Assembly (NCBI GenBank): GCA_027314025.1 | Contig: DAHVCP010000026.1 | Coordinates: 129,237 to 193,236 of the forward strand | DNA length: 64,000 nucleotides | From: Acidobacteriota bacterium | GTDB lineage: Bacteria > Acidobacteriota > Terriglobia > Terriglobales > SCQP01 | Direction: 5' to 3' | Shown here: positions 3,265 through 59,822 of the stretch, in pieces | Position numbering within the stretch: position 1 is the stretch's first letter | How the letters are laid out: each line of letters starts with the position of its first letter | The notes under the pieces: generated by a model | Told to the model about the DNA's origin: nothing | Seen by the model: only the letters and a program-made list of their open reading frames with translations | Database searches by the model: none | Position numbers and translations under genes: made by a program

Positions 3265-3665
3265 CCTGCCGCAGCTCGGCAGCCGTGGATAAGATCCTTG
3301 CCAACAGTGAGTTGCGGCATTCGCCCCGGAGGCGTTCGCATGTTTTTGTCGCCCCCTTGCGGCCATGGCGGCCACAATTTGTCAGCCGCCGCCGTGGCCC
3401 CCCTGGGCGCATGCGCCGGGCCGCGTCGGCGCCCGGCCGGATGGCGGCGCGGTCAGGAATTGTCAAGCTAACTCTCTGCTGGGGAAAGCATTTTCCCGCG
3501 ACGGCAATGGCCTTCCCGCGCTCCTCTGCCGCTTGCCCGCCACCGGCCCTCGGGGAGCTCCACGATTGAGTCTGCAAACTCTTGCATTTGTTCATCTTGG
3601 GCACGCTTCCGCCGTCCCGCAGAGGGCCCGCGGATGTTTGGCCCACTAGCTGCTCTATCGGGAGA

Positions 3666-4706
3666 ATGATGGCCACGGAACCACTCATTGCCTCGGCGGT
3701 GGGCAACCCGCTCCCTCCGGAAGAGGTCGTGTTTGGCGTCTCTCCGGCAATGGCTCCGGTCCGGCAGTTAGTCGGCAAGGCCGCCGGCGCCAACATCCCG
3801 GTGCTCATCCGCGGGGAAAGCGGGACCGGCAAGGAGATCATTGCCACCCTGCTGCATGAACAATCCCCGTGGGCCGCGGGTCCGTTGGTGAAGGTGAACT
3901 GTCCGGCGATTCCTGGTTCCCTGGTGGAGAGCGAGCTGTTTGGCTATGAGAAAGGCGCGTTTACCGGCGCCCAGGTCGCCAAGCCCGGACGCGTCGAGGC
4001 GGCGCACGGCGGCACGCTGTTTTTGGACGAAATCGGCGATCTCGACCCGTCGCTCCAGGCGAAGCTGTTGCAGCTGTTGCAGGACGGGAACTTCACTCGC
4101 ATCGGCTCAGCCAGCGATAAACATGTCGAGGTGCGAGTGGTTTGCGCCACCAACCGTCCTCTCGAGGAGGAGATGGCCGCGGGTGGTTTTCGGCGCGATC
4201 TGTACTATCGCATCAACGCCATCACGATTCATCTCCCACCCTTGCGCGAGCGCAGCGCGGATATTCCCATGCTGGTGGAATACCTCCTCGAGTACTACAC
4301 GCGCAAGTATAATCGCCAGCCCGCGCCGTTGTCGGCCTTGATCATGGGTGAGATGTGCCGCAATTCCTGGCCGGGAAATATTCGCCAGTTGGAAAACCTG
4401 ATCCGCAGATACGTGATCGTGGGCTCCGAGGATGTGATCTTGGCGGAGTTATTGAGCCGCTCCGACGATTGGGCGCTGCCCGTGCCGAACGGGTCCTGCT
4501 CGCTCAAAACCGTGACGCGCGAAGTGGTCGCCAAGGTGGAGCGGAAATTCATCCTGCGAGCGCTACAAGCGGCCAATTGGAACCGGCGTCGCGCCGCGGG
4601 AGCGCTCAATATCAGTTATCGCTCCCTGTTGTACAAGATCAAGGAGGCGGGCATTCCGCCGCACCGCAGCCCGGTGCGCAACAACGTGCAGCGCGAAGAG
4701 GCGTAG
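3666..4706 (+). CDS. Sigma-54-dependent transcriptional activator (bacterial enhancer-binding protein): AAA+ domain plus Fis-type HTH, with no N-terminal receiver or sensor domain
   Basis: Motifs are Walker A GESGTGKE, GAFTGA, Walker B LFLDEIGDL and a C-terminal HTH (AAGALNISYRSLLYKIKEAGI). Only about 50 residues precede the AAA+ core. The start was set at ATGATG 3666. Confidence 0.85.
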   Translation: MMATEPLIASAVGNPLPPEEVVFGVSPAMAPVRQLVGKAAGANIPVLIRGESGTGKEIIATLLHEQSPWAAGPLVKVNCPAIPGSLVESELFGYEKGAFTGAQVAKPGRVEAAHGGTLFLDEIGDLDPSLQAKLLQLLQDGNFTRIGSASDKHVEVRVVCATNRPLEEEMAAGGFRRDLYYRINAITIHLPPLRERSADIPMLVEYLLEYYTRKYNRQPAPLSALIMGEMCRNSWPGNIRQLENLIRRYVIVGSEDVILAELLSRSDDWALPVPNGSCSLKTVTREVVAKVERKFILRALQAANWNRRRAAGALNISYRSLLYKIKEAGIPPHRSPVRNNVQREEA

Positions 4707-6364: not shown

Positions 6365-8629
6365 TCAGTGGGCGGCCAGAATGCGCTGCGCTTCCGGGCG
6401 TTGGCGGAGCGCTGCGTTCAGCCGCACTGCGGCGGAGAGCGCAACCCGCGCCTCCCGTTTGTGGCCGTCCGCGAACAGCGCCTCGGCTAAATGGAAATGG
6501 AACATCGCGTTTTGGGGTTGCTGCTCGACCGCCGGCCGCAGGAGCGCAATGGCGCTGGCGTTCAGGTGCATTTTGAGATAGACCGTAGCCAGCGTATCGG
6601 CGACCGTGGGCACGTTCGGCAGCGCATGCAGCGCCCGCTGCGCCAGCACCATCGCTTGCGGCAGGTCACGCCCCTGTTTCGCGTAGAGATAGGCAAGATT
6701 ATTGTTCGCCACCCCGGAATCGGGCGCGATGGCCAAGGCGCGCCGGTAGTCGCGTTGCGCCTGAGCCTCGTCGCCGTTCTGCTCGGCAATCATTCCGAGC
6801 ATGGTCCATAGGCCGGCATTGTGGGGATGGCGCCGGAGCGCGGCGGCGTATTCCGCCTCCGCTGCGGACAGCTTGTGGTCTTGGGCGTAGAGGCTGGCGA
6901 GGAGCAGATAGGGCGTCAGGCTCGCGGGAGACAGCCGCACCGCGCGTTGCAGCGTTTGCTCCGCGTCCTCGGTCCGGTGTTGCCGGGCATAGAGGCTGGC
7001 GAGCAGTTCATCGAGCGGCGCGGTTTCCTGCCGGCGGACCTGGCCGCGCACCAGCTGGAGAGCGGCGCCGGGATGGCCCTGGGCAAGCTGCACGTTGGCC
7101 AGCCCAGCCACCGCCGCGGGATCGCCCGGCGCCAGCCGAAGCGCTTGCTGAAACTGCTGCTCGGCGGCCGGATAGTCCCGTCCCCGCAAGTACGCGCCGC
7201 CGAGGCGTAGGTACGGTTGAGGAAGACGGGGAGCCAGTTGCTCCGCCTGACGCCAGTCCTTGGTGGCCGCGAAATTCTGGTGCAACTGGGCTTCCGCGTC
7301 ACCTCGCACCAACCATGTCCCGGCAAATTGCGGCTGCCATGCGCTGGCCTGGGTGGCGTAGTCGAGCGCTTGGTTCGGATGGCCTTGGGCCAGCAGCAGC
7401 CGCGCCAGTGCGGCGGCGGCCAGCGCATCGCGGGGGTGGGCGCGGAGCGATCGCTGATAGGATGCGACGGCCTTCATGGGTTGGTGCAACTGGGTGTAGG
7501 CCTGTCCCAGCAGGTCATCCACCGCGGGGAGACCGGAATTGAGTTGATGCGCGGCGGTTAAGTCTTGCAGCGCCGCTTGGCTCTGGCCCAAAGCCAATTC
7601 GATCCGCGCCCGCAGCAGGCGCACCGCCGCTTGGTGGGGATGTTCTTGCGCCAACGCGTCCGCTAAGCTCCGTGCGCGGGCGGTGCGTCCCTGCGCGAAG
7701 TCAATTTCGATCCGCTGCAGGCGCGCGGGCAGAAAATTCGGCGCCGCATGCGCCAGCGCGGCATCAATCGCTTTGGCCTGCTGAGGATGCCCCTGGCTTT
7801 CCAGGAAGCGGGCCAGGGCAAAGCGCGCCGCTGGGGCGCCATGTTCCAGACGCACCACGGCGCGCAGGGCGGCCTCGGCGCGCCGCGGGTGATGCTGCTC
7901 CGCGTAGAACATGGCCAGCGTGCCGCGGGCTTGGGCGGAGCGGGGATGGGCCTGGACCGCCGCCAGCAGCTCCCGCTCCGCGGCCCCGGGATGGTGCTCG
8001 CTCAGATCCAGTCCGGCGAGCTCCCGCCGCGCCTCCAATGAGCCGGAATTGATGGCGAGCACCTGGTTCCAGGTAGCGCGCGCCCCGGCCGAATCGCCCC
8101 CCGCCAGCTCCACCGCGCCCAGCGCCAATAGTCCCGGCTGGAACCGCGGTTGGCGGGCGACCAACGCCCGCAGCAACTTCCGCGCCTCCGGCGCCTTCCC
8201 TTGCCGCGCCAGCGCCGCGGCAAGCAGGATGGTGGCATTGCCATCGCCGGGGTGCTGGGCCAGCACCGCCTGGGCGTCGGCCTGGGCCTTGGCCGTTTGC
8301 CCCGCGGCCAGTTCGATCCGTCCGGCCGCGAGCCGGGCCGCGGCGTCAGCCGGGCGCAACTGGACCGCCTGGCGATATTCTCTCAGCGCTAAGCCGAACT
8401 GCTCCTCGCGGGCGTAGGCGCGGGCCAGGCGGACGTGCAGCGCCGCGGACTGCGGCGCAATCCGCAGTGCGTTGCGGAGTTCGATGACGGCGGCGGCATA
8501 CCGCCCGCTCCGCATGTCGGCGCGGGCTTGCGCCCGGAAGTGGGCTTCCCGCTGGGCGGGGCTGCTGCATCCGGCAGCGGCGGTGAGGAGAACCGCCGCC
8601 GCGGCGAGAAAAAGGAGATGGCGTTTCAT
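6365..8629 (-). CDS. prsT: PEP-CTERM-system TPR-repeat lipoprotein (PrsT-like)
   Basis: The start was reset to MKRHLLFLAAAAVLLTAAAGCSS (lipobox). The remaining roughly 730 aa are TPR repeats throughout. Its ATG overlaps the exosortase stop (ATGA at 8626-8629). Confidence 0.7.
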   Translation of the reverse strand: MKRHLLFLAAAAVLLTAAAGCSSPAQREAHFRAQARADMRSGRYAAAVIELRNALRIAPQSAALHVRLARAYAREEQFGLALREYRQAVQLRPADAAARLAAGRIELAAGQTAKAQADAQAVLAQHPGDGNATILLAAALARQGKAPEARKLLRALVARQPRFQPGLLALGAVELAGGDSAGARATWNQVLAINSGSLEARRELAGLDLSEHHPGAAERELLAAVQAHPRSAQARGTLAMFYAEQHHPRRAEAALRAVVRLEHGAPAARFALARFLESQGHPQQAKAIDAALAHAAPNFLPARLQRIEIDFAQGRTARARSLADALAQEHPHQAAVRLLRARIELALGQSQAALQDLTAAHQLNSGLPAVDDLLGQAYTQLHQPMKAVASYQRSLRAHPRDALAAAALARLLLAQGHPNQALDYATQASAWQPQFAGTWLVRGDAEAQLHQNFAATKDWRQAEQLAPRLPQPYLRLGGAYLRGRDYPAAEQQFQQALRLAPGDPAAVAGLANVQLAQGHPGAALQLVRGQVRRQETAPLDELLASLYARQHRTEDAEQTLQRAVRLSPASLTPYLLLASLYAQDHKLSAAEAEYAAALRRHPHNAGLWTMLGMIAEQNGDEAQAQRDYRRALAIAPDSGVANNNLAYLYAKQGRDLPQAMVLAQRALHALPNVPTVADTLATVYLKMHLNASAIALLRPAVEQQPQNAMFHFHLAEALFADGHKREARVALSAAVRLNAALRQRPEAQRILAAH

Positions 8630-9576
8630 ACGGGCTCGTGAGGTTCGAGGCGCGCGGCGCCCGGCGGCGGTTCCAGTGTGCGCCGCGATTGTTCTCCGCG
8701 CCGCAGCCAAAGCAAGAGCGGCCACAGCAGAACTAAGGCGATCAGGAAGAAGACAAAGCCGCCCTCCCGGTGCAACCGGCCGTAGAGAAAGCCGCGATTC
8801 ACATGCAAAGCCAGCAGGCAGAGGGTGCAGATGCGGATCGCGTTCTTCACCGCCGAAAAGGGAATCGCGACCAGCACCAGTACGGCGCGGCGCCAAGGCG
8901 AGCGCAAATAGAAATATCCAGCCAACAGGGCGGTGATGGCCAGGGCTTGGCTGGAGCGGATGCTGCTGCATTCCTTGGCGACGTGGATCGTAATGGTGGG
9001 AATAAAGAGGTCAAACCCTTGCCGGAAGACCGGCACGCCCAAGACGCCGAAGAACCAGGCGCACATGTGCGTCGAGCCCGCTTGTAGCCAAAAGATGGAA
9101 CGGTCGAGCAGAAATGGCGGAAACGGGATGATGAGCAGAAGAAACAGCCAGGCAAACAGCCCGGCCTGGAAGACCCGGCGGCCGTATATGGCGCAGACCC
9201 CGGCAAAAAGAAACAGCACCAGGCTGAGGGCGAGCAGGCTCAGGTGATCGGCATACGGCACCCGCCCCGCCCATCCCAGGGCCCAGCCCAGGCTCAGGGC
9301 GCCAACGGCGGCGAAACTCGCCGCCGCCAGCCGGTCGCGGCCAGGGTGCGCGAAGATGGATCGCCGCTCGGTCCACAGCAGGTAAATGGAGACGAACGGA
9401 ATCAGGGGAATGTAGGAACAAAAATCGTTGCCCAGGGCGAAGGCCAGCAGTTCGCGCAGGGGCTGCGCGAATAGGGCCAGCAGCGCCGCGAAATAAATTA
9501 TCAGGGCGCGGCGCCGCCGCGGGTCTGCGGCGGTGCTGGCGCGGGAGGCGGAAGGGGTTTCAGTGGCGGGGTTCAC
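8626..9576 (-). CDS. Exosortase (EpsH/Xrt family transpeptidase); subtype not assigned
   Basis: A polytopic membrane protein with the exosortase active-site region VAKECSSIRS and a downstream NAIRI...LHV. GTG at 9576 was chosen as the start; the ORF-track N-terminus is Arg/Pro-rich junk overlapping the upstream gene. Confidence 0.75.
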   Translation of the reverse strand: MNPATETPSASRASTAADPRRRRALIIYFAALLALFAQPLRELLAFALGNDFCSYIPLIPFVSIYLLWTERRSIFAHPGRDRLAAASFAAVGALSLGWALGWAGRVPYADHLSLLALSLVLFLFAGVCAIYGRRVFQAGLFAWLFLLLIIPFPPFLLDRSIFWLQAGSTHMCAWFFGVLGVPVFRQGFDLFIPTITIHVAKECSSIRSSQALAITALLAGYFYLRSPWRRAVLVLVAIPFSAVKNAIRICTLCLLALHVNRGFLYGRLHREGGFVFFLIALVLLWPLLLWLRRGEQSRRTLEPPPGAARLEPHEPV

Positions 9577-9619
9577 GGCGAGGGGCGGTCTCAATGCTGG
9601 GGCGGTGGTACTCGCGCAG

Positions 9620-10663
9620 CTAGCGCGGAGACGAAGCGCCGGAGCGGGCGTCCACCATCGGGGCGGATGCCAGAGCCGGGGTGGTCGCCATCGGCCGCGC
9701 CGCCAGATAGTCGAGCCAGTTCTGGTACAACCGTACCGCATCCACCGCCCAGTTGCATTCGAGCTGCGCGGCGATGGGGCCGTCCGGGAACTCGGCGAGC
9801 AGCGCGGGATCGGGGCGCGCCAGCGCCTGCCGCTCGAATGCCGCCAAGGACCGCGTGGATTCGGGATCAAAGTAGTTGTGCGGCAGCGACGGGTAGTCCG
9901 GGCGCTCGCCGCGCAGAAAGCGCCGCACGTCGCGCCGGTATTCCTTGAGCAGCGTGGCGGCGTGATATTCCGGATGGCCCTGGAGGTGGACGAACAAACT
10001 GCGGCCGCGCGGCTTGACGAACAGGCCCGTGCCGGCCCCCGGCGCGTGGGTCAGGACGGTGTAGCCATGGAGCGCGAGATCGGCTTGCCGCAGATCATTC
10101 CAGCGCGAGTGGGGAAAGTAGACGGTGGGACGGGCCCCGCGCGTCAGCGGGTGCGTCTGCGCCACCTGCTCGGCAAACACGCCGATGCGCTTCCGGGCCA
10201 GCGGCTGGCGCGGGATCCCGCTTTCCTGCAAGACGGCGGCATGGGCCGCCAGGCAGGACAAAACCGCCGAGTGCGTGTGGCTCTCGGCCCAGCGCAGCAG
10301 CTCCACGAGTTCCGGCCAATACGCCTCGGCCCGCAGATCTGGCTGCAAGGGCTCGGCGCCCGTGATGATCACGCCGTCATAGCTGCGGTTGAGCAGCTCG
10401 GCAAGGCTGAAATACGCGTGGTCCAGCCGGGCTCGCGCCTCCGGCCCGCGCGGCACCGCCGGCAGATAGTGAAACGCCAGCTGCACCGGCCGCTCCCCGG
10501 CCGCCGCCGTGAGCAGTGCGGTGAACTGCTCCTCGGTGTCGGCCAACGCGGCGTCCGGCATGTTATTGACCAGCGCAATGCGGAGGCCGGCGCGGGCCGG
10601 GCCAGTGGCCCGCCCACGCGGGGTGGGGCGCGACGATGGCGGATGCTCAATGGCGACGGGCAT
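9620..10663 (-). CDS. metA: Homoserine O-acyl(succinyl/acetyl)transferase, MetA family
   Basis: Motifs are LRIALVNNMPD, a catalytic-Cys region (SAVLSCLAAHAA) and LQGHPEY. The start was reset to MPVAIEH at 10663. Confidence 0.75.
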   Translation of the reverse strand: MPVAIEHPPSSRPTPRGRATGPARAGLRIALVNNMPDAALADTEEQFTALLTAAAGERPVQLAFHYLPAVPRGPEARARLDHAYFSLAELLNRSYDGVIITGAEPLQPDLRAEAYWPELVELLRWAESHTHSAVLSCLAAHAAVLQESGIPRQPLARKRIGVFAEQVAQTHPLTRGARPTVYFPHSRWNDLRQADLALHGYTVLTHAPGAGTGLFVKPRGRSLFVHLQGHPEYHAATLLKEYRRDVRRFLRGERPDYPSLPHNYFDPESTRSLAAFERQALARPDPALLAEFPDGPIAAQLECNWAVDAVRLYQNWLDYLAARPMATTPALASAPMVDARSGASSPR

Positions 10664-18401: not shown

Positions 18402-18432
18402 CGCTGGTGACTGCTTGCAAACGTCCTCGCGC

Positions 18433-21008: not shown

Positions 21009-21103
21009 ACGGGATAGTTGCGGCGAACTCTTTGAAAATGCTTATCCTTTGGGCCGGGCCGTTGGGCCTGGGGGTGATGCGAGGTAACACCCGTGCTGTA
21101 GCG

Positions 21104-21119
21104 GGGAAAATGATTTCCC
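21104..21119. promoter_or_regulatory. Perfect inverted repeat GGGAAA-ATGA-TTTCCC about 100 nt upstream of the 20994-21008 promoter; possible activator/UAS site
   Basis: Seen directly in the sequence. The position relative to the -24 element is typical for enhancer sites. No shared motif with the other promoters was found. Confidence 0.25.
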
Positions 21120-21700
21120 TTTACGGCATCGCGTAGACAAAAAATGGCAACGGCGCGGCGGTCACATTAAGCCGCTGGGCGTGGCGGAAGCGGAGAGCAC
21201 AGGGGCCCGGGGACGGGGGGAACTTGGGAAGTACATGTAACATGTCCGATCCCTTGTTTTCAGTGGCTTGCAGACAAAAATGTTACGTTTTCGCATTCCG
21301 TGACACCGGGGTGGACCCGCAATCAACCGCTGCATAGCCGCGGGGTGACGCGCGGTGGATCAATGGAGCCGGCGTCTGCTGTGAGCGGCGGCTGTAGTGG
21401 TGGCGGTGCCGTGGTGGAAGCTTTTGGCATGCAGAAACGGCGTTCGGGGCCGTCGCCCCTAGCGGTCGTGCCCTGGATCTCGCCCCCGGGGCTAGCCGTA
21501 GGCGGGCGAAACGGCGCGGAGCATGCGTGGCCGGTTGGGCATCGTCGGTTAGGCATGGCCGGATGGGGCGCGCGGCGTAGCCGTGCTGGGGCAATAATTA
21601 GCGGCATAACGCGGGCGGGGCTGGGGGCATCGCGGGCGGTGGCAAGAGCCCAGACCGAGCTAATCACAGACAAGCGGGCGCAGGCGGGCGCGGGCCGGGG

Positions 21701-23074: not shown

Positions 23075-24359
23075 TGAGGCTGCCTCGGTCGGCGATGCGA
23101 ACGAAATCGAGCAAACGCTGGCCCGGCCGTAGCCGGCCGGGAACGCGCTCAAAGTCGGGGTCGCGGTTGGCGATGACCACGGTTTCGGCGTGGCCGAGAA
23201 CTTCGTCCACGCTCGCGACCATCAGCTTGGAAATGTGGGGAATGCGGTTGAGGATGAAATCGCGATTGGCGCCGACCAGGCTGGCCAGGCGCACGTTGCG
23301 GTCGTAGAGGCGGAGGTCAAAACCCTTGCCGAGCAGGCGCTCGATGACCTCGATCACGGGGCTTTCGCGCAGATCGTCGGTGCCGCCCTTGAAGCTGAAT
23401 CCCAGAATGCCGACCTTGCGATTGCCCTGGTCGGCGATCATGCGCACGCCGCGGGCCACCTGGAGTTCGTTGCTGGGGAGGATGGAACCCAGGATGGGCA
23501 GTTCCAGATCGCGGCTCTTGGCGGCGTAGGACAAGGCGCGCAGATCCTTGGGCAGGCAGGAACCGCCGAAGGCGAAACCGGGCTGGAGGTAGGCGGGGGA
23601 GATGTTTAGCTTGCGGTCCTGGCAAAAAATGTCCATCACGCGGTGGGAGTCGAGCTCCAGGCGCTTGCAGAGGACGCCGATTTCGTTGGCGAAGCCGACC
23701 TTGAGCGCATGCCAGACATTATCCACGTATTTGATCATCTCCGCCGTGGCTAGGTCGGTGCGAATCAGCGGGCCGGGCAGGCGGGCGTAGATCTCGGCCA
23801 CCATATCCCCGCTGGCGGCGTCGAGGGCGCCGATGACGGTCTTGGGGGGATGGTGGAAGTCGTGGACGGCGGTGCCCTCGCGCAGGAACTCGGGATTATT
23901 GGCCACGCCGAAGTCCGCGCCGGCGCGCTTGCCGGAGAACTCCTCGAGCATGGGGACGACGATCTCCCGCATGGTGCCGGGCAGGACGGTGCTGCGGATG
24001 ACCACGGTATGGCGGGCGGATTTGGCTTTGAGGGCGGCGCCGATCTCCTCGCAGGCATGGCGGACGTAGCGCAGGTCGAGGTTGCCGTTGGGCTGGCTGG
24101 GGGTGCCGACGCAGACCAGGGACAGATCGGTGGCAGCGATGGCGGCGCCGGCGTCGGCAGTGGCGCGGAGGCGGCCGGCGGCGGCGGCGGTGGAGAGGAT
24201 GGGACCGATCTCCGCCTCGATAATCGGGGACTGGCCGCGGTTGATGAGGTCCACCTTGGTGGCGACGGGATCCACGCCGACGACTTCATGGCCGTCATGG
24301 GCCAAGCAGCCGGCGGAAACGACGCCGACATAGCCGAGGCCGAGGATGCTGATCTTCAT
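23046..24359 (-). CDS. algD: GDP-mannose 6-dehydrogenase-like nucleotide-sugar dehydrogenase
   Basis: [34 protein letters not shown] and GFAFGGSCLPKD. By eye it is close to Pseudomonas AlgD along its whole length. Its ATG overlaps the aspartate kinase stop (ATGA at 24356-24359). Confidence 0.7.
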   Translation of the reverse strand: MKISILGLGYVGVVSAGCLAHDGHEVVGVDPVATKVDLINRGQSPIIEAEIGPILSTAAAAGRLRATADAGAAIAATDLSLVCVGTPSQPNGNLDLRYVRHACEEIGAALKAKSARHTVVIRSTVLPGTMREIVVPMLEEFSGKRAGADFGVANNPEFLREGTAVHDFHHPPKTVIGALDAASGDMVAEIYARLPGPLIRTDLATAEMIKYVDNVWHALKVGFANEIGVLCKRLELDSHRVMDIFCQDRKLNISPAYLQPGFAFGGSCLPKDLRALSYAAKSRDLELPILGSILPSNELQVARGVRMIADQGNRKVGILGFSFKGGTDDLRESPVIEVIERLLGKGFDLRLYDRNVRLASLVGANRDFILNRIPHISKLMVASVDEVLGHAETVVIANRDPDFERVPGRLRPGQRLLDFVRIADRGSLNGQYDGFCW

Positions 24360-25927
24360 GCTTCTCTCCAATTGTCTCCCGCCAGGGTCTCGGCAGGAAT
24401 CCGGGGGTGAGCCGCCGCGTCGCCGCCGGCAGCGGCGGCGGCCGGCGCGGCCCGGGCGTCCCGCGGGAGCGAGGGCGGCGGCAGCAAGCGGCGATGCAAG
24501 GCGGCCAGGGCGCCGGGCAGGTCCGATTGCTGCACGGCAATGCCGATGACGCGCGGTTCGGCGGAGACGCCGGAGGCGAGGTAGGCGACGCCGGCATCGC
24601 GCAGGGCGGCGATGGCGCGGGCATGAATGTCCTCGACGGCGGGACCGCCGACCCCCGCGACCAACGCCACGCCGGGGACCAGGCGCAAGCGCGGATCGCC
24701 GGGCGGCAGGCGCAGCGCCCAGCGCCAAACGGCGAGAACCGCCGCGGCCTGCGCATCGGGCACGGCGATTTGGAGGATGCCCTCCCGCGGGAGGAAGCGA
24801 AAGGCGACGGCGTCATTGGCCAGGGCGGGCCAGGCCCGCGCCTGGAGCCGAGCGCGTGCGTCGCCGGTGGGATCGCGATAGGCCACGATGGCAAGATTGG
24901 AACGCGCGGCCAGGGCGAATGGGCCCGCCACCGCACCGGGGCGGGGCGATGCGGTCGCGGCGGCGGCGACTTGGGTGCCCGGGCGCTCGGGGCGAAAGGT
25001 GTTGCGAATCGAGAGCGGGATGCCGGCGGCGCGGGCGGGCTCCAGGCAGTTCGGGTGCAGGACCTTGGCTCCGGCCCGGGCCAGGAGGGCGGCGTCCTGA
25101 TAGGACAACGCGGGGAGGACCTGGGCGGCGGGAACCAGGCGGGGATCGGCGTCGTGGACGCCATCCACATCGGTCCAGATGACGGCTTCGCGGGCGTGCA
25201 TGCAGGCGGCGATGAGGGTGGCGGAATAATCCGATCCGCCGCGGCCCAAGGTGGCGGGGGCGGCGTCGTGGCGGCGGCAGATGAAGCCGGTGACCACGGG
25301 CAAGACGCCGCGTTGGAGCAGGGGGCGGAGGCGGGCGCGGCAACGGGCGGTGGAATGCGCCATGTCGGGCTCGCCCGCGGGGTTCAGGCTGATGAGTTCG
25401 GTGGCGGCGATGGCCTGGCTCCGGCGGCCGGAGGCGGCCAGTGCGGAGGCCAGCAATGGGGCGGCGAGGCGCTCGCCGAGGCCCGTGATTTCGTCGGACG
25501 CTCCCGGGGAGGAACGGGAACCGGCGAGATCGCGGCAGAGCGCCTCGGCTTCCGCCACCAGGGCGGCGGCGTGGGCGGCGTAGGCGCGATGGACGGGCGG
25601 GGGCAACAGCTCGGCGGCGACGGCGTCATGCCGGGCGCGCAACGCCTGCAGAATCTTCACGGCTGACCTGGTTTGGCCGCGGGCGGCGTCGGCGGCGCAG
25701 GCCACCAGCTGGTCGGTGGCGCCGGCGAGGGCGGAAACCACCACGATCAGTGGGGCGGGGTCATCCGTGCCGGTGACGATGGCGACCACGTGGCGGAGAC
25801 AGGCGGCGTCGGCGACCGATGTGCCACCGAACTTCATGACGACGGGGCTGGCGGTGAGGCGAGGAAGGGCAAAGGACCGCCGGGACAGGGGTACCTTTTC
25901 GCCCGAATTGTTCCCGTTCTGCTGCAT
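24356..25927 (-). CDS. Aspartate kinase with C-terminal ACT-like region
   Basis: Motifs are KFGGTSV, TLGRGGSDYSA, IWTDVDGV and AKVLHP. The start is uncertain: ATG 25927 (MQQNGNN) or ATG 25837 (MKFGGTSV). Confidence 0.8.
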   Translation of the reverse strand: MQQNGNNSGEKVPLSRRSFALPRLTASPVVMKFGGTSVADAACLRHVVAIVTGTDDPAPLIVVVSALAGATDQLVACAADAARGQTRSAVKILQALRARHDAVAAELLPPPVHRAYAAHAAALVAEAEALCRDLAGSRSSPGASDEITGLGERLAAPLLASALAASGRRSQAIAATELISLNPAGEPDMAHSTARCRARLRPLLQRGVLPVVTGFICRRHDAAPATLGRGGSDYSATLIAACMHAREAVIWTDVDGVHDADPRLVPAAQVLPALSYQDAALLARAGAKVLHPNCLEPARAAGIPLSIRNTFRPERPGTQVAAAATASPRPGAVAGPFALAARSNLAIVAYRDPTGDARARLQARAWPALANDAVAFRFLPREGILQIAVPDAQAAAVLAVWRWALRLPPGDPRLRLVPGVALVAGVGGPAVEDIHARAIAALRDAGVAYLASGVSAEPRVIGIAVQQSDLPGALAALHRRLLPPPSLPRDARAAPAAAAAGGDAAAHPRIPAETLAGDNWREA

Positions 25928-25944
25928 GTGCCGCGGCCGCGAAA

Positions 25945-25959
25945 GCAAAGCGCCCCCCA
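25945..25959 (-). promoter_or_regulatory. Weak sigma-54 promoter candidate upstream of the aspartate kinase gene
   Basis: The minus strand reads TGGGGG-GCGCT-TTGCT with correct spacing. It is only compatible with the downstream start (25837), because it sits about 18 nt from the ATG at 25927. Confidence 0.3.
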
Positions 25960-26121
25960 TGGTTCGCCCCTTGGCGCGGCCAAGGGGTGGCATGGGCAAG
26001 CGATTTCTAATCTTGGGCTTTGGGAAGCACATCAAGGGCCAAATGGCCAGGTCTTGGCCGGGGCGGCGCGCGGGCGGGGCCTGGGGGGCGGACCGGGCCC
26101 CGGTCCCGCCCACGCGCCCAG

Positions 26122-26140
26122 CGGGGCTGGGGCCCGCGCC
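26122..26140 (+). repeat. REP-like GC-rich repeat, partial copy A
   Basis: CGGGGCTGGGGCCCGCGCC, identical to the 3' 19 nt of copies B and C. Confidence 0.6.
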
Positions 26141-26156
26141 AGGGAAAAGCCGGACG

Positions 26157-26187
26157 CCCCGCCGCAGGCGGGGCTGGGGCCCGCGCC
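26157..26187 (+). repeat. REP-like GC-rich palindromic repeat, copy B
   Basis: CCCCGCC-GCAG-GCGGGG-CTGGGGCCCGCGCC (31 nt), a hairpin plus tail. It is identical to copy C. Confidence 0.65.
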
Positions 26188-26363
26188 AGGAAATTTTCAG
26201 GCTCGGCTACCGATGGGCGGCGGTGCGGCGCGGCGAGGTGCTGCAAGGTTTTGCAGACAGCGGGAAGGCATTGGGCCACCCAACGGGGGCGGGAAAGCCG
26301 GGGGCCGCAGGCCCAGCCCGGCGCGTAAGCGGCGCTCCGCGCCGCGCCAATTAAAGCGGGACA

Positions 26364-26394
26364 CCCCGCCGCAGGCGGGGCTGGGGCCCGCGCC
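26364..26394 (+). repeat. REP-like GC-rich palindromic repeat, copy C
   Basis: A 31/31 match to copy B, located 207 nt away in the same intergenic region. Confidence 0.65.
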
Positions 26395-26426
26395 CATCAG
26401 TGAATCCAGGGCCATTGCCGCATGGT

Positions 26427-51024: not shown

Positions 51025-51141
51025 CCGCTTACAGCCCGTACACCTTCTCGCTCCGCATCGCGCCGAGCGCGTTGCGGGTGTCCACGATGCGCGGCGCCAG
51101 CGCCGCTGCACTCGGGACCTGCAAAACCTTGCGGCGAGGAC

Positions 51142-51935: not shown

Positions 51936-53498
51936 CTACCAACCCATCCGGGCCAGCCATGTGGCCCCGTGCAAATACGCCACCATCGCGGCGCCGGCGA
52001 CCAGCGCCAGCGCCAGGGCGCCGATCAGCATTTGGCGGTGCAGCTGCCGCCGCCGCTCCGGCGCGGCGAGCACCAGCGGCACCTGGGCCAGCACCGGGGT
52101 CCCCAGGTAATACTCGACGTCGCGCTCGTTGCGCACGACCGGATCCGCATACTCCCGCGCCAGGCCCAGGCCCACGCCGACCAGCAGGCCGAAGACCACG
52201 GCCAGCAGGCTGAGCTTGGCGACGGCCGGCTTATCGGGGCGCTGCGGCAGGCTGGGCGGGTCCACGACGCGAAACTCCTCGCCGTCGGCCTGCGCCTCCA
52301 TGGCCGCGGCCATCTGCGCGGCGTCGCGCTTCTTGAGCAGCGATTCGTAGTTGTCGGTGGCGATCTTGTAATTGCGCTCGACCGCCGCCAGCCGCTCCTG
52401 GACGGCGGGGGCCATGGCCACGCGGGCCCGCAGCTGGGCGATGTTGGCGGAGATGCGCCGCTGCTGCCGCTGCTGCCAGCGCGCGTCCTGATCGAGGGTC
52501 GCCAACTCGCCGCGGATTTGCTGTTCGGACATGCCCGCCGGACCGGGGGCGGTCTTGGGCGCCGGGTCGGCGGCCAGCGCCTTGCTGAGCGCGCCGATCT
52601 CACGCTTCAGCCGCTGGACATCGGGATTGGCGGGCGTGTCCACCTGCTCATCCATGGCCAGCTTCACCTTGTCGGCCTGGAGCTGCGCGTCCAGCGGGGA
52701 GGTGGGCGCGGCGGTGGCCAGCGCCGGGGCGTTTTGCAGCGCGGCCAACAGCGACTGCAAGTAGGTCTTCTGCTGCTGGTCCCGCGCGGCTTGCTGCTCG
52801 GCCGCCTCCAGCGCGGTCTGCTCGGAGCCCAACTGCTGCAAGTTGCTGGCTTCCTGCTCCGGCAGCGCGCCCATGTACTGCTTCTCGAGCGCCTCTTGCT
52901 GCGCCGACTCGCGCTGCAGGCGGCGCTTCGCGCGCTGCAACTCCGAATTGATGAACTGCACCGTGCCCTGCGCCTGCTGCTGGCGCACGGCCAGATTCTC
53001 CGTGATGAACAGGCCGGCGAGATCCTGCGTGACCTCCTGCGCCTGGCGCGGCGTGGTGCCTTGGTAGGCGATCTGGAAGGCGCCGCCGTTGCGGGTCTGG
53101 TTGGGGTCGTTCGGATCGGTGATGTTCTTGACGGTGATGTCCTGGCGCATCCGCGCCGCCAGCTGCCGCTCGGTGAGCACGCCGTTGAGCTTGGGGTAGA
53201 GGCCGTATTTGTGGATGATCGCCAACAGGTGCGTGCGGCTGAGGATCTCCTCGCTGATCTCCTGAAGCAGTTCGTCGGTGTTCTCGTTGACGGTCGACTG
53301 CACGAAACTGGTCGGAACCTTCTGCGCCTCGACCAGGATCATGGTTTCCGACTGGTAGAGCTTGGGCAGGTGGCGGATGGCCATGATGCCGCCGCCGGCG
53401 ATCAGCAGCGCCGGAAGCACCACCCACGGCCAGCGGCGGCGCACGATGTCTCGGTAGTCGGCCAGCCCGCTGGGCGGCCGGTGGCGGATGGCGTTCAC
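51936..53498 (-). CDS. Polysaccharide chain-length determinant (Wzz/GumC, PCP family)
   Basis: An N-terminal TM segment is followed by YQSETMILVE. There is a long coiled-coil Q/A/L-rich periplasmic region and a C-terminal TM segment. Confidence 0.75.
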   Translation of the reverse strand: MNAIRHRPPSGLADYRDIVRRRWPWVVLPALLIAGGGIMAIRHLPKLYQSETMILVEAQKVPTSFVQSTVNENTDELLQEISEEILSRTHLLAIIHKYGLYPKLNGVLTERQLAARMRQDITVKNITDPNDPNQTRNGGAFQIAYQGTTPRQAQEVTQDLAGLFITENLAVRQQQAQGTVQFINSELQRAKRRLQRESAQQEALEKQYMGALPEQEASNLQQLGSEQTALEAAEQQAARDQQQKTYLQSLLAALQNAPALATAAPTSPLDAQLQADKVKLAMDEQVDTPANPDVQRLKREIGALSKALAADPAPKTAPGPAGMSEQQIRGELATLDQDARWQQRQQRRISANIAQLRARVAMAPAVQERLAAVERNYKIATDNYESLLKKRDAAQMAAAMEAQADGEEFRVVDPPSLPQRPDKPAVAKLSLLAVVFGLLVGVGLGLAREYADPVVRNERDVEYYLGTPVLAQVPLVLAAPERRRQLHRQMLIGALALALVAGAAMVAYLHGATWLARMGW

Positions 53499-54092: not shown

Positions 54093-54108
54093 GTGCAAGT
54101 GTTTGCAC
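54093..54108. promoter_or_regulatory. Perfect inverted repeat GTGCAA-GTGT-TTGCAC about 110-125 nt upstream of the 54217 promoter; candidate enhancer (UAS)
   Basis: Seen directly in the sequence. An AT-rich stretch (54150-54180) lies between it and the promoter, as expected for a bend or IHF region. Confidence 0.35.
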
Positions 54109-54216
54109 TCTTTCGGTGCCGCACGCGGTTTCGCCACCCAGGGAATAGGGGCATCATTCGCTATTAACTCATTCGTTATCAGCGCGCCGATGAATTGCGC
54201 ATCGCGATTGCCGATT

Positions 54217-54232
54217 TGGTACTGTACTTGCA
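54217..54232 (+). promoter_or_regulatory. Sigma-54 (-24/-12) promoter driving the PEP-CTERM protein gene
   Basis: TGGTAC-TGTAC-TTGCAT on the plus strand, about 60 nt upstream of the ATG at 54292. Confidence 0.7.
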
Positions 54233-54291
54233 TTACCGAAGCTGTCCCTCCGACCAGGGGGTAGCCCCAATACTCGGGAGCCAATGATCCA

Positions 54292-54642
54292 ATGCTCAAA
54301 CGTTTCCCCCCCTTTACCCAAGCCGTTGCCCTCGCTGCTTTCTTGGCCCTTGCGATGGGGTTGAGCGCTCGTCCGGCTTGGGCGGGCACGATTACCAGTC
54401 CGACACAGGTGAGCTTCAGCCAGACGAACGCCTATGGCATGGGCAACTTCAACCTGTATTCGGGCAGCTTGTATCAAACGGGCACGGATCTTAGCTCGAA
54501 TACCTTCAGCGTCACCGATGGCGCGTACAGCCCGGCGGCGCAGCCGGTGTCGGCTCCGGAGCCGGCGAGTTGGCTGCTGTTGGCGGCAGGACTTGGCGCG
54601 CTGGGATTGGCCGCGCGGCGCCGCCGCGTTTCCTGGCCCTGA
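54292..54642 (+). CDS. Small secreted PEP-CTERM-anchored protein (exosortase substrate)
   Basis: The signal peptide ends ARPAWA. A mature region of about 57 aa is Ser/Thr/Gly/Asn-rich. The C-terminal sorting signal is VSAPEPASWLLLAAGLGALGLAARRRR (PEP motif, TM helix, Arg cluster). RBS GGGAG lies 12 nt upstream. Confidence 0.85.
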   Translation: MLKRFPPFTQAVALAAFLALAMGLSARPAWAGTITSPTQVSFSQTNAYGMGNFNLYSGSLYQTGTDLSSNTFSVTDGAYSPAAQPVSAPEPASWLLLAAGLGALGLAARRRRVSWP

Positions 54643-54950: not shown

Positions 54951-55697
54951 TCAATAAAATATCGGCGAAACCGCCGCAATTCCACGTCGGGCTTCCAGCA
55001 GCAGGGGATACTCGCCGCCCTCGCAGTCAATCCTTGCGACGGCGTCAGCCCACTGCCCCAGCTTGAGCAGCGCCTCAAGTGAGTACGTCGGCACTTCCAC
55101 CCCGCGGGTGCTTTCTCGGAGCTCGGCGCTAATTGAAGCCGTGTCCGCTGACACGGTCATGCTTCCATCGCGACCGCCGCCGGCGCACAGCGGAGTGATC
55201 ACGTCCCCTAGCTGGTTGGCCGCGACGTTTGCGCGCAGCACAGAAAACGAGCCTGGGTAGGGCTCAAGGACCAATACCCGCCGCGCCCCGTTCAGCGCAA
55301 AATACACAGCGCTATCCCCGATCGACCCGCCGATGTCGAGCACCTCGCATCCGCGGACGTCGAGCCACCGGTACAGCTCGTCAACGAACTGTTCCTTGAG
55401 CACGATGTAAGATTCCCGCACGCGCCCTGACTCGAAACGAATGTGTCTCCCGCGGTACCGAAAGCTAAGCCCCCCGTTCTCGATGGTCAGGGGGCGGCAA
55501 AACTCGGCAAGGAGGGCCAGATTCCACGTTTCCCCGTTGAGCGCAGCGGGCAACTGCGAACGGTCCGTCAGGCGGAGCGTGGGCCCGGAGCGGAACCTGA
55601 CCTCTACGCTGCGTCGACAATGCGCGCGGAGGGCGGCGACCTGAATCCAGTTTCGGCAGCTCCTTCTCAGCCTGTCGAGCGCCGCCAGCTTGCGCAC
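54951..55697 (-). CDS. FkbM-family methyltransferase
   Basis: Motifs are VLDIGGSIGDSAVYFAL, VLVLEPYPGSF and RIDCEGGEYPLL. The start is GTG. Confidence 0.65.
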   Translation of the reverse strand: MRKLAALDRLRRSCRNWIQVAALRAHCRRSVEVRFRSGPTLRLTDRSQLPAALNGETWNLALLAEFCRPLTIENGGLSFRYRGRHIRFESGRVRESYIVLKEQFVDELYRWLDVRGCEVLDIGGSIGDSAVYFALNGARRVLVLEPYPGSFSVLRANVAANQLGDVITPLCAGGGRDGSMTVSADTASISAELRESTRGVEVPTYSLEALLKLGQWADAVARIDCEGGEYPLLLEARRGIAAVSPIFY

Positions 55698-55822
55698 CGG
55701 CCAATAAGCGGCATTCGCCCACCGCCCCAGGCCGCGGTCCCCAAAACGCTTTCATTGCAGCGTGTCCATCCCGCCTCCTCTGCGCGACGAAGCAAGAGCG
55801 TATTGTACGGCAGCCGGGCCCG

Positions 55823-55832
55823 CCCCCCCCCC
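55823..55832. repeat. C10 homopolymer (G10 on the coding strand of the flanking genes) in the FkbM upstream region
   Basis: Counted directly: g-CCCCCCCCCC-ggg. It is flanked by short GC hairpins (GCCCG/CGGGC and GGGCAC-CCCT-GTGCCC). Confidence 0.8.
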
Positions 55833-56023
55833 GGGCGACACGGGCACCCCTGTGCCCCCGCCTCGCATCGTGAGCCGGGGGTCGGGCCGAGCCGGGCAAG
55901 CGGGCAATTGCGGCCCTGCCCTGCTGCTGGCGGGAACAGGTAGGGGACACCGGCCATAGCGTAATCTCCGGCAAAATACGCGCGAGACGCGGGTGGCGTC
56001 CCCAGCAGCGCGCCCAACCCCAA

Positions 56024-57521
56024 TCACAGCCAGGGCGCGGGTTCTGCAGCGTCGGCGATCCCTCGTCTTGCGTTCAGCGTCGCCGGGCCGAAAATCAGAT
56101 GGTTCGGCTGATATTTCCGCAGCGCCGCCGTCACGATTTGAAAGAATTTCTGCACGTACTGCGCCATGAAGGCGTTGAGATCCGCGCGCACGGCGGGCGT
56201 CGCCGTGCTGAGGCTGATGTCGTCGTCGCCCACCCACGAATCCCGCCCGTCTTCATCCAGCAGGCCCGTGCCCGTGCCGAATCCACCGGCATCCCCGAAC
56301 GTCGTGTAATCCGCTCCCCATGCCGCGTCCAGGGCCGCGATGCTGTTGTTGTATTTCTGCTCCAGGAACGCCTGCAGCGCGTATTTCGTGTATACCTTCG
56401 TGTCCGTGTACGCCTCGCCATACTTGGTGTTGGCGATTTGCTGGAAATTCGTGCACAGCACGATCCATCCCAGGTTCGAGGTGGCATGCCCGGCCGGCAA
56501 GGTGGGCTGGTCGGGGCCGGGACCGAAGCCCCACAGATCGTCCGCGTCCTCGACCGTGGTGCCGATGATCCATGGCGAGTTGGCCACCGCCGGCGGCGAC
56601 ATCGCCGCCACTGAGCCATCCACGTACGCCGTGTAATTGGGGTCGTAGATGTCGGCGACAGGATCGCCCGCATAGTTGTGGTAGTTGCCGTCCAGACCGT
56701 TCATCAGATCCTTGACCGGTCCGGGCGCGTAATTGCCGCTGTCAATCAGCGAATAGTAGTTCGGACGGATCATTCCGATGGATGGAATCGGCGCGGTCGT
56801 GTTGCGCGTGGCGAACTGGTCCACCGCGCCCACGTAGGCCGATGAATATTCGCCCGCGGTGTTGAATCCCCACGCCTTCAGCCGCCGCGCCGCCTGCACC
56901 CCCCACTCCGCGATGCCGCCATATTTCGCCAAAACACGGTCGTAGTAGGAGGTTCCCGGCAGTCCGTCCGGCGCGTTCGAGGCGTCAACGTCGTAGACGC
57001 CCAGCATCCAAAACTCGTTCCCCAGCGGATCCACGAACACCCAACGCGAGCCGACCTTGGCTACCCGGAAATATCCCGTCGCGCCGCCCGGCGCCGCCAA
57101 ACCCACGACGCCGCCATAGGTATCCAGCGTGGGCGGCGGCGTTTGGGATGCCTGCGTTTGCGCCACCGAGACGCTCAACGTCCGTTGCGCCTTCGCCCCC
57201 GCTGCGTCTTTCACCGCGGCTTGGAACGCATACGTTCCGGCTTGCTGCGGGCTGCCGGTCAATGCCCCGCTGCTGCTCAAGCTGACGCCCGCCGGCAGTT
57301 GGCCGGCAGCCACGCTCCATTGGTAGGGCGCGCGGCCGCCGCTGGCCGCCAGCGCCGCGCTGTAGCTCTTGGCCACCGCCCCCAGGTAGCTTGGCGGTGC
57401 TGACCTCCAACCCCGCCGAAGCCTTGGCCGTCGCGTTCAATCCCGCTTGACCGCCACAACCCGCCGCGACGACTGCGGCGCCAACAATCGCCGCGAGAAA
57501 CCAAAACCTGTGCAATCCCAC
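56024..57521 (-). pseudogene. Lipoprotein with an Ig-like repeat and a glycoside-hydrolase-like domain, interrupted by a frameshift in a G5 run
   Basis: The frame from GTG 57521 encodes the lipoprotein signal MGLHRFWFLAAIVGAAVVAAGCGG...STAKLPGG and then becomes nonsense. The homologous body (VAKSYSAALAASGGRAPYQWSVAAGQLPAGVSL...) continues in another frame from 57376. The junction is the C5/G5 run at 57379-57383. A sequencing error cannot be excluded. Confidence 0.6.
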
Positions 57522-58282
57522 CCTGCCTCCAAAACTGTGCGCCGGCGGGCTGGCCTGCCGGCCATCTTGCCGGCGCCGGCATTCTCCGTACGTCTATTGA
57601 GCATCTCCACCGCCAACGCTACCCGTTCTTCTGTAGCGCCAACTACCGCATATCTCGGCGCGGTGCCGCTCCCCTGCCGCCGTTTCTCTTGGTGCCAGAA
57701 TTACCGCCCGCCGAAACACGCCTAGCGGCCAGCGAAGCAATGTTGCGCATCCCTGCCCCCTCCCTTTTCGGCCTCGGGCGCACCGCCCACCCCGGCTGGC
57801 GCGACCGGCTTAGGACGGAATGCAGCGCGCCTCGCAGGCGAGGTCCTCCGCGCCCATTCCGGTCCCCGATTCTTTTCGCAAGATACCCGGATCGCCTATA
57901 GCGCGCGCTACGGCGCTTACCCGGTTAGTGGCCGCAATTTCCCCTACAGGCAATCATCAGCCGCTGCGGTCAGTCACTGCGGCGCTCCCGGCTAACCCCG
58001 CCAGCGGGAATCGCGGCGGCGCGCGCAAGGCCCGGCCGCGGGCCGCGGGCCCGACTCCCGCGGCAGCTTAGGGCCGGCGGCCCGCAGCCTGCCGCGCGGC
58101 CTCGCGGGCGCCGGCCAACGCCGGAATGCTTCTTCGCCAACGTGCAGGAATCTTGCGACTCACTTCGCGAGGTGAGTGAGTAATCTCAGCAGAATTCTTG
58201 GTGACCACGTTGGAAGTGCAAATGCACTGGCCGCGGGGGAACAGAATCATCCCCGCCGCAATCACCAATCTTCCTGCCACGG

Positions 58283-59256
58283 GTGGTAACTGGCCGGGGG
58301 CGATTGGGCGCGGGAGAAGGAACCCCGCCATGGACCGCCCCCCCGGCCATCTCCGTTGTGCTGCCCACATACAACCGGGCGTACATTGTCGGCGAGGCGA
58401 TCCAAAGCGTACTCGCCCAGAGCTTCACTGATTGCGAGCTCATCGTGGTGGACGATGCGTCCAGCGACTAGTCGCGCCACATCATCGAGTCGTTCCGGGA
58501 CCGCCGCATCCGGTACCTGCGTCATCCGGTGAATCGCGGCTGCAGCGCCGCCTACAATACCGGCTTCCACGCCTGCCGCGCGCCCCTGGTGGCCATTCTC
58601 GACTCGGACGACCTCTGGAGCGTGGACAAGCTGGCGCGTTGCGCGGACTTCCTTTCCCGCTACCCCGCCGCCGCCGCGGTGTTTTCTGATACCGCGAAAA
58701 CCGACGGCGGCCAGCGGCTGGAATCCTTCATCCGCGCCACGCCGGTCCTGGGCCCCTCGCTCGCGAGCCGCGGATTTCCATCTGACGCCGCGAACTATAC
58801 CTGTGCCTGCGGCAAGAGGTGCCGATCAAGCCGCCCACGCTCGTGCTGCGCCGGGCCGCCCTCTTCCAGACCGGACTGTTCCGCGAGGACTGGCCCTCGG
58901 GCAGCGACTGGGAATTTCTCCTCCGCTTTGCCAAGCGCTTCCGCTTTGGCTACCTCGACGCGCCGCTGGTCACCATGCGGGTTCAGGCAGACGCCACGCA
59001 CCGAGTGCACGAGGGAAAGGACCGCGCCCTGATCCTCGCCATGCTCACCCAAGAGGCCGAAGCACTGCGCCGCGCGGGGGATCGCCAGGCTGTGCGCGCC
59101 GCCTGCGACGGCATCGTGTCCATGAGCAAGCACCTGGGCTGGTTCTACCAGGTGCAGGGGCGCAAACTGCGCGCCGCCCGGGCCTTTGCCGCGGGATTCG
59201 CGCATACCGGATCGTTCGGCCTGCTGCTGCGCGCGCCTGCGGCCGTCGTCCGCTAG
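58283..59256 (+). pseudogene. GT2 glycosyltransferase pseudogene (in-frame TAG plus at least one frameshift)
   Basis: ISVVLPTYNRAYIVGEAIQSVLAQSFTDCELIVVDDASSD is followed by TAG (58469-58471). The same frame then continues SRHIIESFRDRRIRYLRHPVNRGCSAAYNTGF...ILDSDDLW. The C-terminal part (RRELYLCLRQEVPIKPPTLVLRRAAL...) is in a different frame from about 58786. A possible original ATG at 58330 with RBS GGGAGAAGG is out of frame across a C7 tract (58338-58344). Confidence 0.7.
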
Positions 59257-59345
59257 CCGCGCCCACCTGCGGGCCTGCCTCCTCACCCCGGACCGCAACG
59301 GGTCCGGAACCCAAACCCCCAGTGCGATCCTGCTGCACCTTTCCC

Positions 59346-59374
59346 TTGACGCAGCAGGCCTGCCCCGTTATCAT
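59346..59374 (+). promoter_or_regulatory. rRNA operon promoter P1 candidate (sigma-70 type)
   Basis: TTGACG, 17 nt, TATCAT. Confidence 0.55.
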
Positions 59375-59449
59375 CATTTGAGCCTTGGTGCGCACGTCGC
59401 GGTTTCCGGCGATCGGCAACCGCAGGGGTGGTGTCGGCCGGAAAATCGG

Positions 59450-59478
59450 TTGACAGGCTGGCCAAGGCGCGCTAAGGT
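59450..59478 (+). promoter_or_regulatory. rRNA operon promoter P2 candidate (sigma-70 type)
   Basis: TTGACA, 17 nt, TAAGGT, located 104 nt downstream of P1. Confidence 0.5.
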
Positions 59479-59707
59479 AACAAGAGGCTCGATTGGCGCT
59501 ACTCGGCGCCGTTGTCGTGCCCGGGCGGTGCAAACGCCCGGCTTCGCGCAGCCGCAGTGCTCGCTGCAAGCCCCTTAGGAACCGAGACCGTGGGTCCGCG
59601 GTATGGGATCTCGGAGCGGTCGCGGCTTAAAGTTCGAGGACGGTTTTGCCTTCGGTAAAACCGGTTGGCCCCCCAGGGGGCCCCCTTCGCCTCCGGGCGC
59701 GGGGATC

Positions 59708-59719
59708 GCTGTTTGACAA
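59708..59719 (+). promoter_or_regulatory. rrn leader boxA-like antitermination element
   Basis: GCTGTTTGACAA compared with the E. coli boxA GCTCTTTAACAA. The same 12-mer recurs in the 16S-23S spacer. Confidence 0.55.
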
Positions 59720-59822
59720 CTGGATGGAACACGCCAGAAGTAAAGTCATTCCGGGTTATCAGCCGGGGCGGCCACTCAAAAGCTAAACTCGGCGGGCAGC
59801 TCGATCGCCCGCTGGGGAGTTC

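Follow-up and report, generated by a model that had tools for sequence, protein, structure and literature searches.

The window analysed here, a stretch of 64,000 nucleotides (nt) from an uncultured acidobacterial lineage of the order Terriglobales, carries one long exopolysaccharide (EPS) locus, read on the minus strand in scans of its open reading frames (ORFs). At the right-hand edge of this locus lies a small plus-strand gene (54292..54642) for a 116-amino-acid protein with a PEP-CTERM tail, divergent from the gene for a chain-length determinant across 793 nt. Within this intergenic region we examined a predicted sigma-54 promoter and, upstream of it, a perfect dyad that recurs at a few other places in the genome. 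Exosortases and PEP-CTERM proteins are common in soil and sludge bacteria and have been linked to the cohesion of cells and slime. The present assembly (3.8 Mb, 67% G+C, 75 contigs, 97% complete) is labelled G000, C numbers are its contigs, and the window is G000:C3:129237-193236; G001-G003 are genomes of the same genus and L numbers are metagenome contigs.

The small protein scores above the cut-offs of both PEP-CTERM models, with 22.7 bits against TIGR02595 (cut-off 16) and 30.9 bits against PF07589 (cut-off 20.7), in agreement with the PEP-CTERM call of an earlier reading of this DNA (the first-pass annotation), which had also placed the ORF, the PEP codons and the palindrome correctly. By inspection, the predicted signal peptide consists of MLKR, AVALAAFLALAMGL and AWA-G (codons 54292-54384). 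The mature part follows (54385-54555; residues 32-88, which are 57 amino acids, as had been estimated), then the PEP codons (54556-54564) and a membrane helix with an RRRR tail (54565-54639). Read as SAPEP-ASWLLLAAGLGALGLAA-RRRR-VSWP, the C-terminus has the PEP motif, the hydrophobic helix and the basic cluster all present. PEP-CTERM ORFs were counted across the genome by HMM (hidden Markov model) scan and by regular-expression scan, and the two agreed on one in the window, which had been claimed to hold a single exosortase substrate, and on eight in the genome, a count that had been proposed as a check. In all eight, the mature protein is predicted to start at A-G(T/S/P)(I/L), as in AWA-GTIT, ARA-GSIT, AVA-GTIQ and LLA-GPIN, a shared start that exceeds what signal-peptidase rules alone explain.

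A search of 5.8 billion proteins returned only 5 clusters of homologues, all of 116-120 amino acids, and each has these chain-length and kinase genes next to it, also in loci whose other flank is different; the small protein is confined to a few close lineages. Among orthologues, codon changes at the third position dominate over those at the other two (30 versus 20 and 12; 24 versus 10 and 5), and the core of the mature part is invariant (AWAGTIT, QV.F.Q, GMGNFN and SGSL.Q, the core being also written GTITxPxQVxFxQ). Together, the third-position bias and the invariant core argue for a coding gene under selection and not for a free linker. The earlier suggestion that the short mature domain is mainly a handle for glycosylation or anchoring is therefore doubtful, since its 57 amino acids have a conserved core and do not form a low-complexity linker. 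The scores against the PEP-CTERM models and the single exosortase of the genome support the prediction that the 116-amino-acid protein is a genuine exosortase-type substrate produced from a single-gene unit.

To rank sigma-54 sites we used our own approximate weight matrix, in which the consensus scores 18.1, on both strands of the genome. The promoter of the small gene, TGGTACTGTACTTGCA (GG-N10-GC; 54217..54232, plus strand), scores 16.1 and is 11th of all genome sites. TGGTAC-TGTAC-TTGCAT had previously been placed at 54217-54232; the start is correct, but this sequence, TGGTACTGTACTTGCAT, spans 54217-54233 and its true end is thus 54233. By itself the promoter pattern is not significant in the window (1 match versus 0.17 expected; 17 of 100 shuffles have one). 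The predicted upstream activator site is the perfect dyad GTGCAA-GTGT-TTGCAC (54093..54108), at a distance of 109 nt from the promoter, and the DNA between them (54109-54216) is indeed AT-rich, as had been noted, at 54.6% G+C versus 67% for the window. Midway between box and promoter lies an AT-rich element, GCTATTAACTCATTCGTTATCA (54160..54181). Transcription is predicted to start at about 54243, a start inferred from the position of the -12 GC, and the predicted leader of 49 nt would begin with a 5'-terminal hairpin (CCCU..GGGG; 54243..54261) and carry a Shine-Dalgarno-like GGGAG (54276..54280) 11 nt 5' of the ATG, which is GGGAG or GGAG in orthologues.

We aligned the upstream DNA of seven loci, from three same-genus genomes and four metagenome contigs (protein identities 95, 95, 79, 59, 57 and 53%), which represent four diverged lineages. 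Most of this DNA is unalignable, and conservation is concentrated in four islands that correspond to the box, the AT-rich element, the promoter and the leader. The box island has the consensus TTTTG(T/C)GCAA-N4-TTGC(A/G)C, in which the central 4 nt are free to vary (GTGT, GCGT, TGAA, AATC, AACT) and the half-sites co-vary symmetrically, from GTGCAA..TTGCAC here to GCGCAA..TTGCGC in L023, a pattern expected of a site bound by a protein dimer. The AT-rich island reads GCTATTA(A/T)CTC...T(T/A)ATCA; by eye it has no convincing match to the Escherichia coli IHF (integration host factor) consensus, and the element may be a bending site or the site of a second regulator. The promoter island reads T(T/G)GGTA(C/T)nGTAnTTGC(A/T) in all orthologous loci. 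The leader island begins with a hairpin, CCCC-N7-GGGG, whose stem is present in all six loci folded, including L004, where the stem differs in sequence and retains its pairing; a search of Rfam found no known RNA family at 53.4-59.8 kb. From the 14-nt core of the box to the promoter the gap is 109 nt in five loci, one of them L004 with its diverged intervening DNA, and 96-97 nt in L023 and L026, and the distance from promoter to ATG is 58-60 nt in all loci (59 nt here). Box and promoter are beyond chance because they are conserved in relatives down to 53% protein identity while their flanks have diverged. The earlier proposal of an own sigma-54 promoter with a dyad at enhancer distance accordingly finds both elements in all seven loci.

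The exact core of the box, TGCAA-N4-TTGCA, has 6 copies in the 3.8-Mb genome, 3 of which are in the window, where 0.04 are expected and none of 100 shuffles reaches 3. By our reading, five of the six are intergenic, and four of those five have a sigma-54-type site within about 225 nt. Besides the copy of the small gene (54094), the window contains TGCAAACTCTTGCA (3573..3586), which lies 93 nt 5' of the start codon of a sigma-54 activator gene (at -93 to -96 in orthologues from two genera), and TGCAAGGTTTTGCA (26242..26255), a candidate in an intergenic region of the EPS locus upstream of an aspartokinase-like gene. The sigma-54-type site that may be paired with the latter, TGGCCCTTGATGTGCT (26041-26026, minus strand), is 200 nt downstream of the box and weak, with a score of 9.3; several G+C-rich repeats resembling REP (repetitive extragenic palindromic) elements (ggcgcgggccccagccccgcctgcggcgggg...) occupy 26100-26420, between this third box and its candidate promoter. 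Elsewhere in the genome, an exact box at C40:38697 lies upstream of a PilZ gene (C40:38986-39400) with a TGGCCACTAGCGTGCA site of its own, and at C51:46655 an exact core box is followed after 191 nt by a sigma-54-type site and then by an activator-like ORF. This ORF (C51:46655-47829) has no receiver, has a degenerate sigma-54 interaction domain and is divergent from a full-length activator gene.

Boxes with one mismatch lie 51 nt before the GG-N10-GC sites of two further PEP-CTERM genes, on C62 (TGGAATTAAAATTGCT, score 15.1) and C45 (CGGCCCTTGAGTTGCA), and the arrangement on C62 is kept in two same-genus genomes. This geometry recurs at the activator gene, with 52 nt from the box to a sigma-54-type site. 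When the gap length of the dyad was changed as a control, no comparable pairing with strong sigma-54 sites was seen in the genome. The box is thus carried by three of the eight PEP-CTERM genes, so that the small gene is not uniquely controlled, and the candidate regulon consists of these three genes, the PilZ gene, the activator gene and, probably, an EPS sub-operon. The word 'dedicated', applied to the small gene in the first-pass annotation, does not survive this result. Three matches were considered and set aside. The exact 16-mer of the GTGCAA-GTGT-TTGCAC type occurs twice in the genome, and the copy other than 54093-54108, which is also the sixth exact core, falls at an ORF end (C71:57712) and is probably there by chance. 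A box with a site scoring 15 at C64:24967 is apparently inside a kinase ORF, again probably by chance. At the UpxY leader, a one-mismatch box (51120-51133) is downstream of the only good sigma-54 site there, the wrong order for an enhancer; 430 nt separate this sigma-54-type site, TGGAACCCAAATTGCT (51251-51236, minus strand, score 14), from the UpxY gene downstream, and it falls within the 3' end of the tyrosine-kinase gene.

The activator gene at 3666..4706 (plus strand) encodes an enhancer-binding protein of 346 amino acids with no receiver domain; in Pfam it consists of an AAA+ domain with GAFTGA from residue 23, a lid and a Fis-type helix-turn-helix (HTH), and no other sensor domain was found among its Pfam domains. 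It scores 290 bits against the PrsR model (cut-off 502.6) and is not a PrsR. Its sigma-54-type site, TGGCCCACTAGCTGCT (3639..3654, plus strand), is 11 nt before the ATG, and TTTGGCCC-N5-CTGC is kept 12-16 nt before the ATG in the L139, L140, L141 and L144 orthologues. Within the genus and in another genus of the family, orthologues are 99, 78, 74 and 70% identical, and the more distant ones, at 50-64% identity, all come from metagenome-assembled genomes of Terriglobales/Acidobacteriaceae. A second receiver-less activator, on L028, was considered as an orthologue and rejected, as it matches a paralogue carried by other same-genus genomes. The conserved promoter of the activator gene itself carries the box, which makes the 3666-4706 protein a natural choice as its reader; we predict that it is the most likely one.

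Orthologues of the activator also keep a second, distal dyad of the GGAAA-N4-TTTCC type, which in the window is GGGAAAGCATTTTCCC (3482-3497), some 175 nt upstream of the gene; this dyad is shared across the family. GTGAAAA-N2-TTTTCAC occurs at a similar place in the Terriglobales orthologues, and the half-sites of the second dyad resemble those of the main box (xGxAA-N4-TTxCx). The leader of the activator transcript is predicted to be 1-5 nt long, and the GGGAG before the ATG would precede the transcript start (3639-3668; near 1480-1503 in L140, L141 and L144).

A PilZ gene (PF07238, 33 bits, cut-off 22.5) precedes the activator gene in about half of the closest Terriglobales loci, and this PilZ-activator operon has GCAA-N4-TTGCAC about 95-175 nt before a TTTGGCCC-N5-GTGC promoter. 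In the present genome, the stand-alone PilZ gene with the exact box and TGGCCACTAGCGTGCA upstream (C40:38697-39400) is 51% identical to the activator-linked PilZ ORF of Terriglobales. We put forward, as a speculative proposal that we ourselves think unlikely to hold in full, that the PilZ protein gates the sensorless activator, so that exosortase substrates and EPS genes would form a sigma-54 regulon switched on by cyclic diguanylate (c-di-GMP). If true, this would be a new kind of activator-partner pair, replacing the PrsK/PrsR two-component input of Proteobacteria.

The chain-length determinant of the EPS locus (51936-53498, minus strand) is closest to the type of the XrtA system, and the locus also encodes a tyrosine autokinase, an UpxY-family antiterminator, a priming transferase, sugar-modifying enzymes, a flippase and an O-antigen-ligase-like protein; to the left of these genes lie the exosortase gene, a gene for a PrsT-type tetratricopeptide repeat (TPR) protein and the sigma-54 activator gene. 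The exosortase gene (8626..9870, minus strand, start uncertain) scores 109 bits against TIGR02602 (cut-off 105.55), and its PF09721 match at 8707-9489 is the single one in the genome; this one exosortase is presumed to process all eight PEP-CTERM proteins. Adjoining it is the gene for the PrsT-type TPR lipoprotein (6365..8971, minus strand, start uncertain; TIGR02917, 325.3 bits, cut-off 312.2). The genome has rpoN and encodes about 15 sigma-54 activators.

Genes for an aspartokinase, a homoserine O-succinyltransferase, an O-acetylhomoserine sulfhydrylase, an acyl-CoA ligase and a 2-hydroxyacid dehydrogenase are located at 9620-26113, within the exosortase/EPS locus, and may supply an amino-acid-derived substituent of the polymer. 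On the other side of the small gene, relatives (L028, 10647-15375; G003:C111:71169-75537) have a GerE-type response regulator, one or two receiver-less activators and Wza/GNVR export genes. This regulator and export segment is missing from the window, where damaged genes for a glycosyl hydrolase and a family 2 glycosyltransferase (54951-59800) run into a ribosomal RNA operon. The 5' end of the 16S gene reads GATCCTGGCTCAGAATC and matches the Acidobacteria-directed primer Acid31F; with the nearest homologues of the activator, it points to Acidobacteriota (Terriglobia) as the host group.

We propose that the small gene is a single-gene unit that would stay silent until sigma-54 RNA polymerase is activated by an enhancer-binding protein. 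An activator of the dimer type would bind the dyad GTGCAA-N4-TTGCAC at 54093-54108, and looping of the intervening 109 nt, with the AT-rich element, would bring it to polymerase at TGGTAC-N5-TTGCA (54217-54232). Transcription from about 54243 would then yield the 49-nt leader with its 5' hairpin. The 3666-4706 activator, if it is the reader of the box, would control its own synthesis. After export and cleavage at the PEP tail, the small protein would most likely remain with the exopolysaccharide that the adjacent locus produces. Activity of the promoter, binding of the box, the identity of the activator and the role of the protein are all predictions from sequence. Taken as a whole, the reading (an exosortase substrate, a sigma-54 promoter, a box regulon, 3666-4706 as the likeliest activator and an EPS-associated protein) appears to us probable. 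It upholds in part the interpretation of the first-pass annotation, of which activator dependence and the link to EPS are well founded by sequence. In all orthologous loci the small gene occupies the edge of an EPS locus, with the chain-length and tyrosine-kinase genes oriented divergently from it.

Several observations weigh against this reading. The spacing of 109 nt at the small gene differs from the 51-52 nt at other members by about 5.5 helical turns. The box stands before only 1 of 23 PEP-CTERM genes in three Terriglobales genomes, and its association with such genes does not extend throughout the order. AlphaFold2, run on the small protein with 6 sequences, gave a confidence (predicted local distance difference test, pLDDT) of 48 and thus no usable fold for the mature part. 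The activator's own promoter scores only 10.7 and is so near the ATG that the leader is almost nil. Finally, a paralogous receiver-less activator (52% identical) is encoded 3.4 kb downstream of the small gene in G003, with a counterpart likewise placed on L028, and is a candidate for the true reader in those genomes; G001 and G002 carry a similar paralogue, its location relative to the small gene being established for G003 and L028.

It is possible, if rather unlikely, that promoter and box are real and that another of the approximately 15 enhancer-binding proteins reads the box. Apart from the relatives' paralogue, the degenerate regulator on C51 would qualify through the exact core box and sigma-54-type site that precede it, as would a PrsK/PrsR-like pair on C75, where a long histidine kinase with weak similarity to the N-terminal part of PrsK adjoins an activator. 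Against this, the 97%-complete present assembly lacks the paralogue but retains an intact box and promoter. The surroundings of the paralogue genes showed no box in L028 or L146, and the 3666-4706 gene keeps its box at a fixed position across two genera.

Other explanations place the dyad outside sigma-54 control of the small gene. It could serve the divergent chain-length gene, which starts at 53498, for example as a repressor site or a sigma-70 activator site, given that the 793-nt region is common to both genes and the box is 565-595 nt from the chain-length gene in four lineages. We hold this to be very unlikely: a distance of about 580 nt is long for a classical operator, the 109-nt spacing to the sigma-54 promoter is held exactly while the intervening DNA diverges, and at three unrelated loci that have no chain-length gene the box lies 51-52 nt before sigma-54-type sites. 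That promoter and palindrome are both chance matches in an AT-richer spacer, with the gene read from an ordinary sigma-70 promoter, would agree with the frequency of the promoter pattern in shuffled windows given above, but is hardly credible when both elements and their spacing are kept down to 53-59% protein identity in otherwise unalignable DNA and the box count of the window is reached by none of the shuffles. Among these explanations we retain sigma-54 control through the box, with 3666-4706 as the likeliest reader.

A scheme of this kind was described by Haft, Paulsen, Ward and Selengut in 2006 (PMC1569441), a design that the first-pass annotation did not mention. According to that study, PEP-CTERM genes mostly stand as single-gene units downstream of long non-coding regions, and a 17-nt motif 1 that ends in TTTACA is present at 99 of 167 such genes in Proteobacteria (PMC1569441). 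Motif 1 is separated from a sigma-54 motif by a spacer of 62.8 +/- 10.6 nt (range 32-92), the sigma-54 motif is on average about 71 nt from the start codon (range 23-221), and the phylogenetic profile of the motifs matches PrsK, PrsR and PrsT; the motifs were seen in Proteobacteria only, and the authors expected other regulators elsewhere (PMC1569441). The present locus agrees with this scheme in being a single-gene unit behind a long non-coding region, with an activator site followed by a -24/-12 motif that is 59 nt from the start codon and so inside the published range, and in having a PrsT-type gene above the TIGR02917 cut-off beside its exosortase gene; its site also precedes a few genes other than PEP-CTERM genes, as in the published scheme.

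It departs from the scheme in the site itself, GTGCAA-N4-TTGCAC, as far as the hexamer TTTACA quoted for motif 1 allows the two to be compared; TTTACA is absent within 1.5 kb on either side of the small-gene region. The spacer of 109 nt (96-97 nt in L023 and L026) is outside the range of 32-92 nt, and the spacers of the two other PEP-CTERM genes measure 51 nt. In the genome, neither PrsR (TIGR02915) nor PrsK (TIGR02916) scores above its cut-off, the best matches having 442 bits against 502.6 and 103.5 bits against 300, respectively, the latter in the kinase domain only. The candidate activator has no receiver domain, and the host is an acidobacterium.

For one PEP-CTERM gene, pepA of Aquincola tertiaricarbonis RN12, expression is RpoN-dependent, the transcript start has been mapped behind a -24/-12 promoter with a predicted upstream enhancer, and the PepA protein has been tied to floc formation and to keeping exopolysaccharide cell-bound (PMC9850573). 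The small gene resembles pepA in its predicted -24/-12 promoter with a predicted upstream site. It differs in its product, which matches the PepA model NF033554 only in the tail (20 bits, cut-off 80), and Aquincola, unlike the present genome, has PrsK/PrsR.

Enhancer-binding proteins of the PspF type have no regulatory domain. The candidate activator is similar in consisting only of an AAA+ domain with GAFTGA and a Fis-type HTH, and in having an upstream site of its own, but it scores far below the PspF cut-off, no PspA-like partner was seen here, and the partner gene in Terriglobales encodes PilZ. To our knowledge, the switching-on of PEP-CTERM genes is known for Proteobacteria only. The general scheme has been known since 2006; the version seen here, specific to Acidobacteria, differs in the sequence of the box, the missing PrsK/PrsR and the acidobacterial host. 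The locus, in which box, spacing, promoter and candidate activator are all defined, offers a clean and conserved case from an acidobacterial lineage that is uncultured, and points to c-di-GMP, through a PilZ partner, as a possible input.

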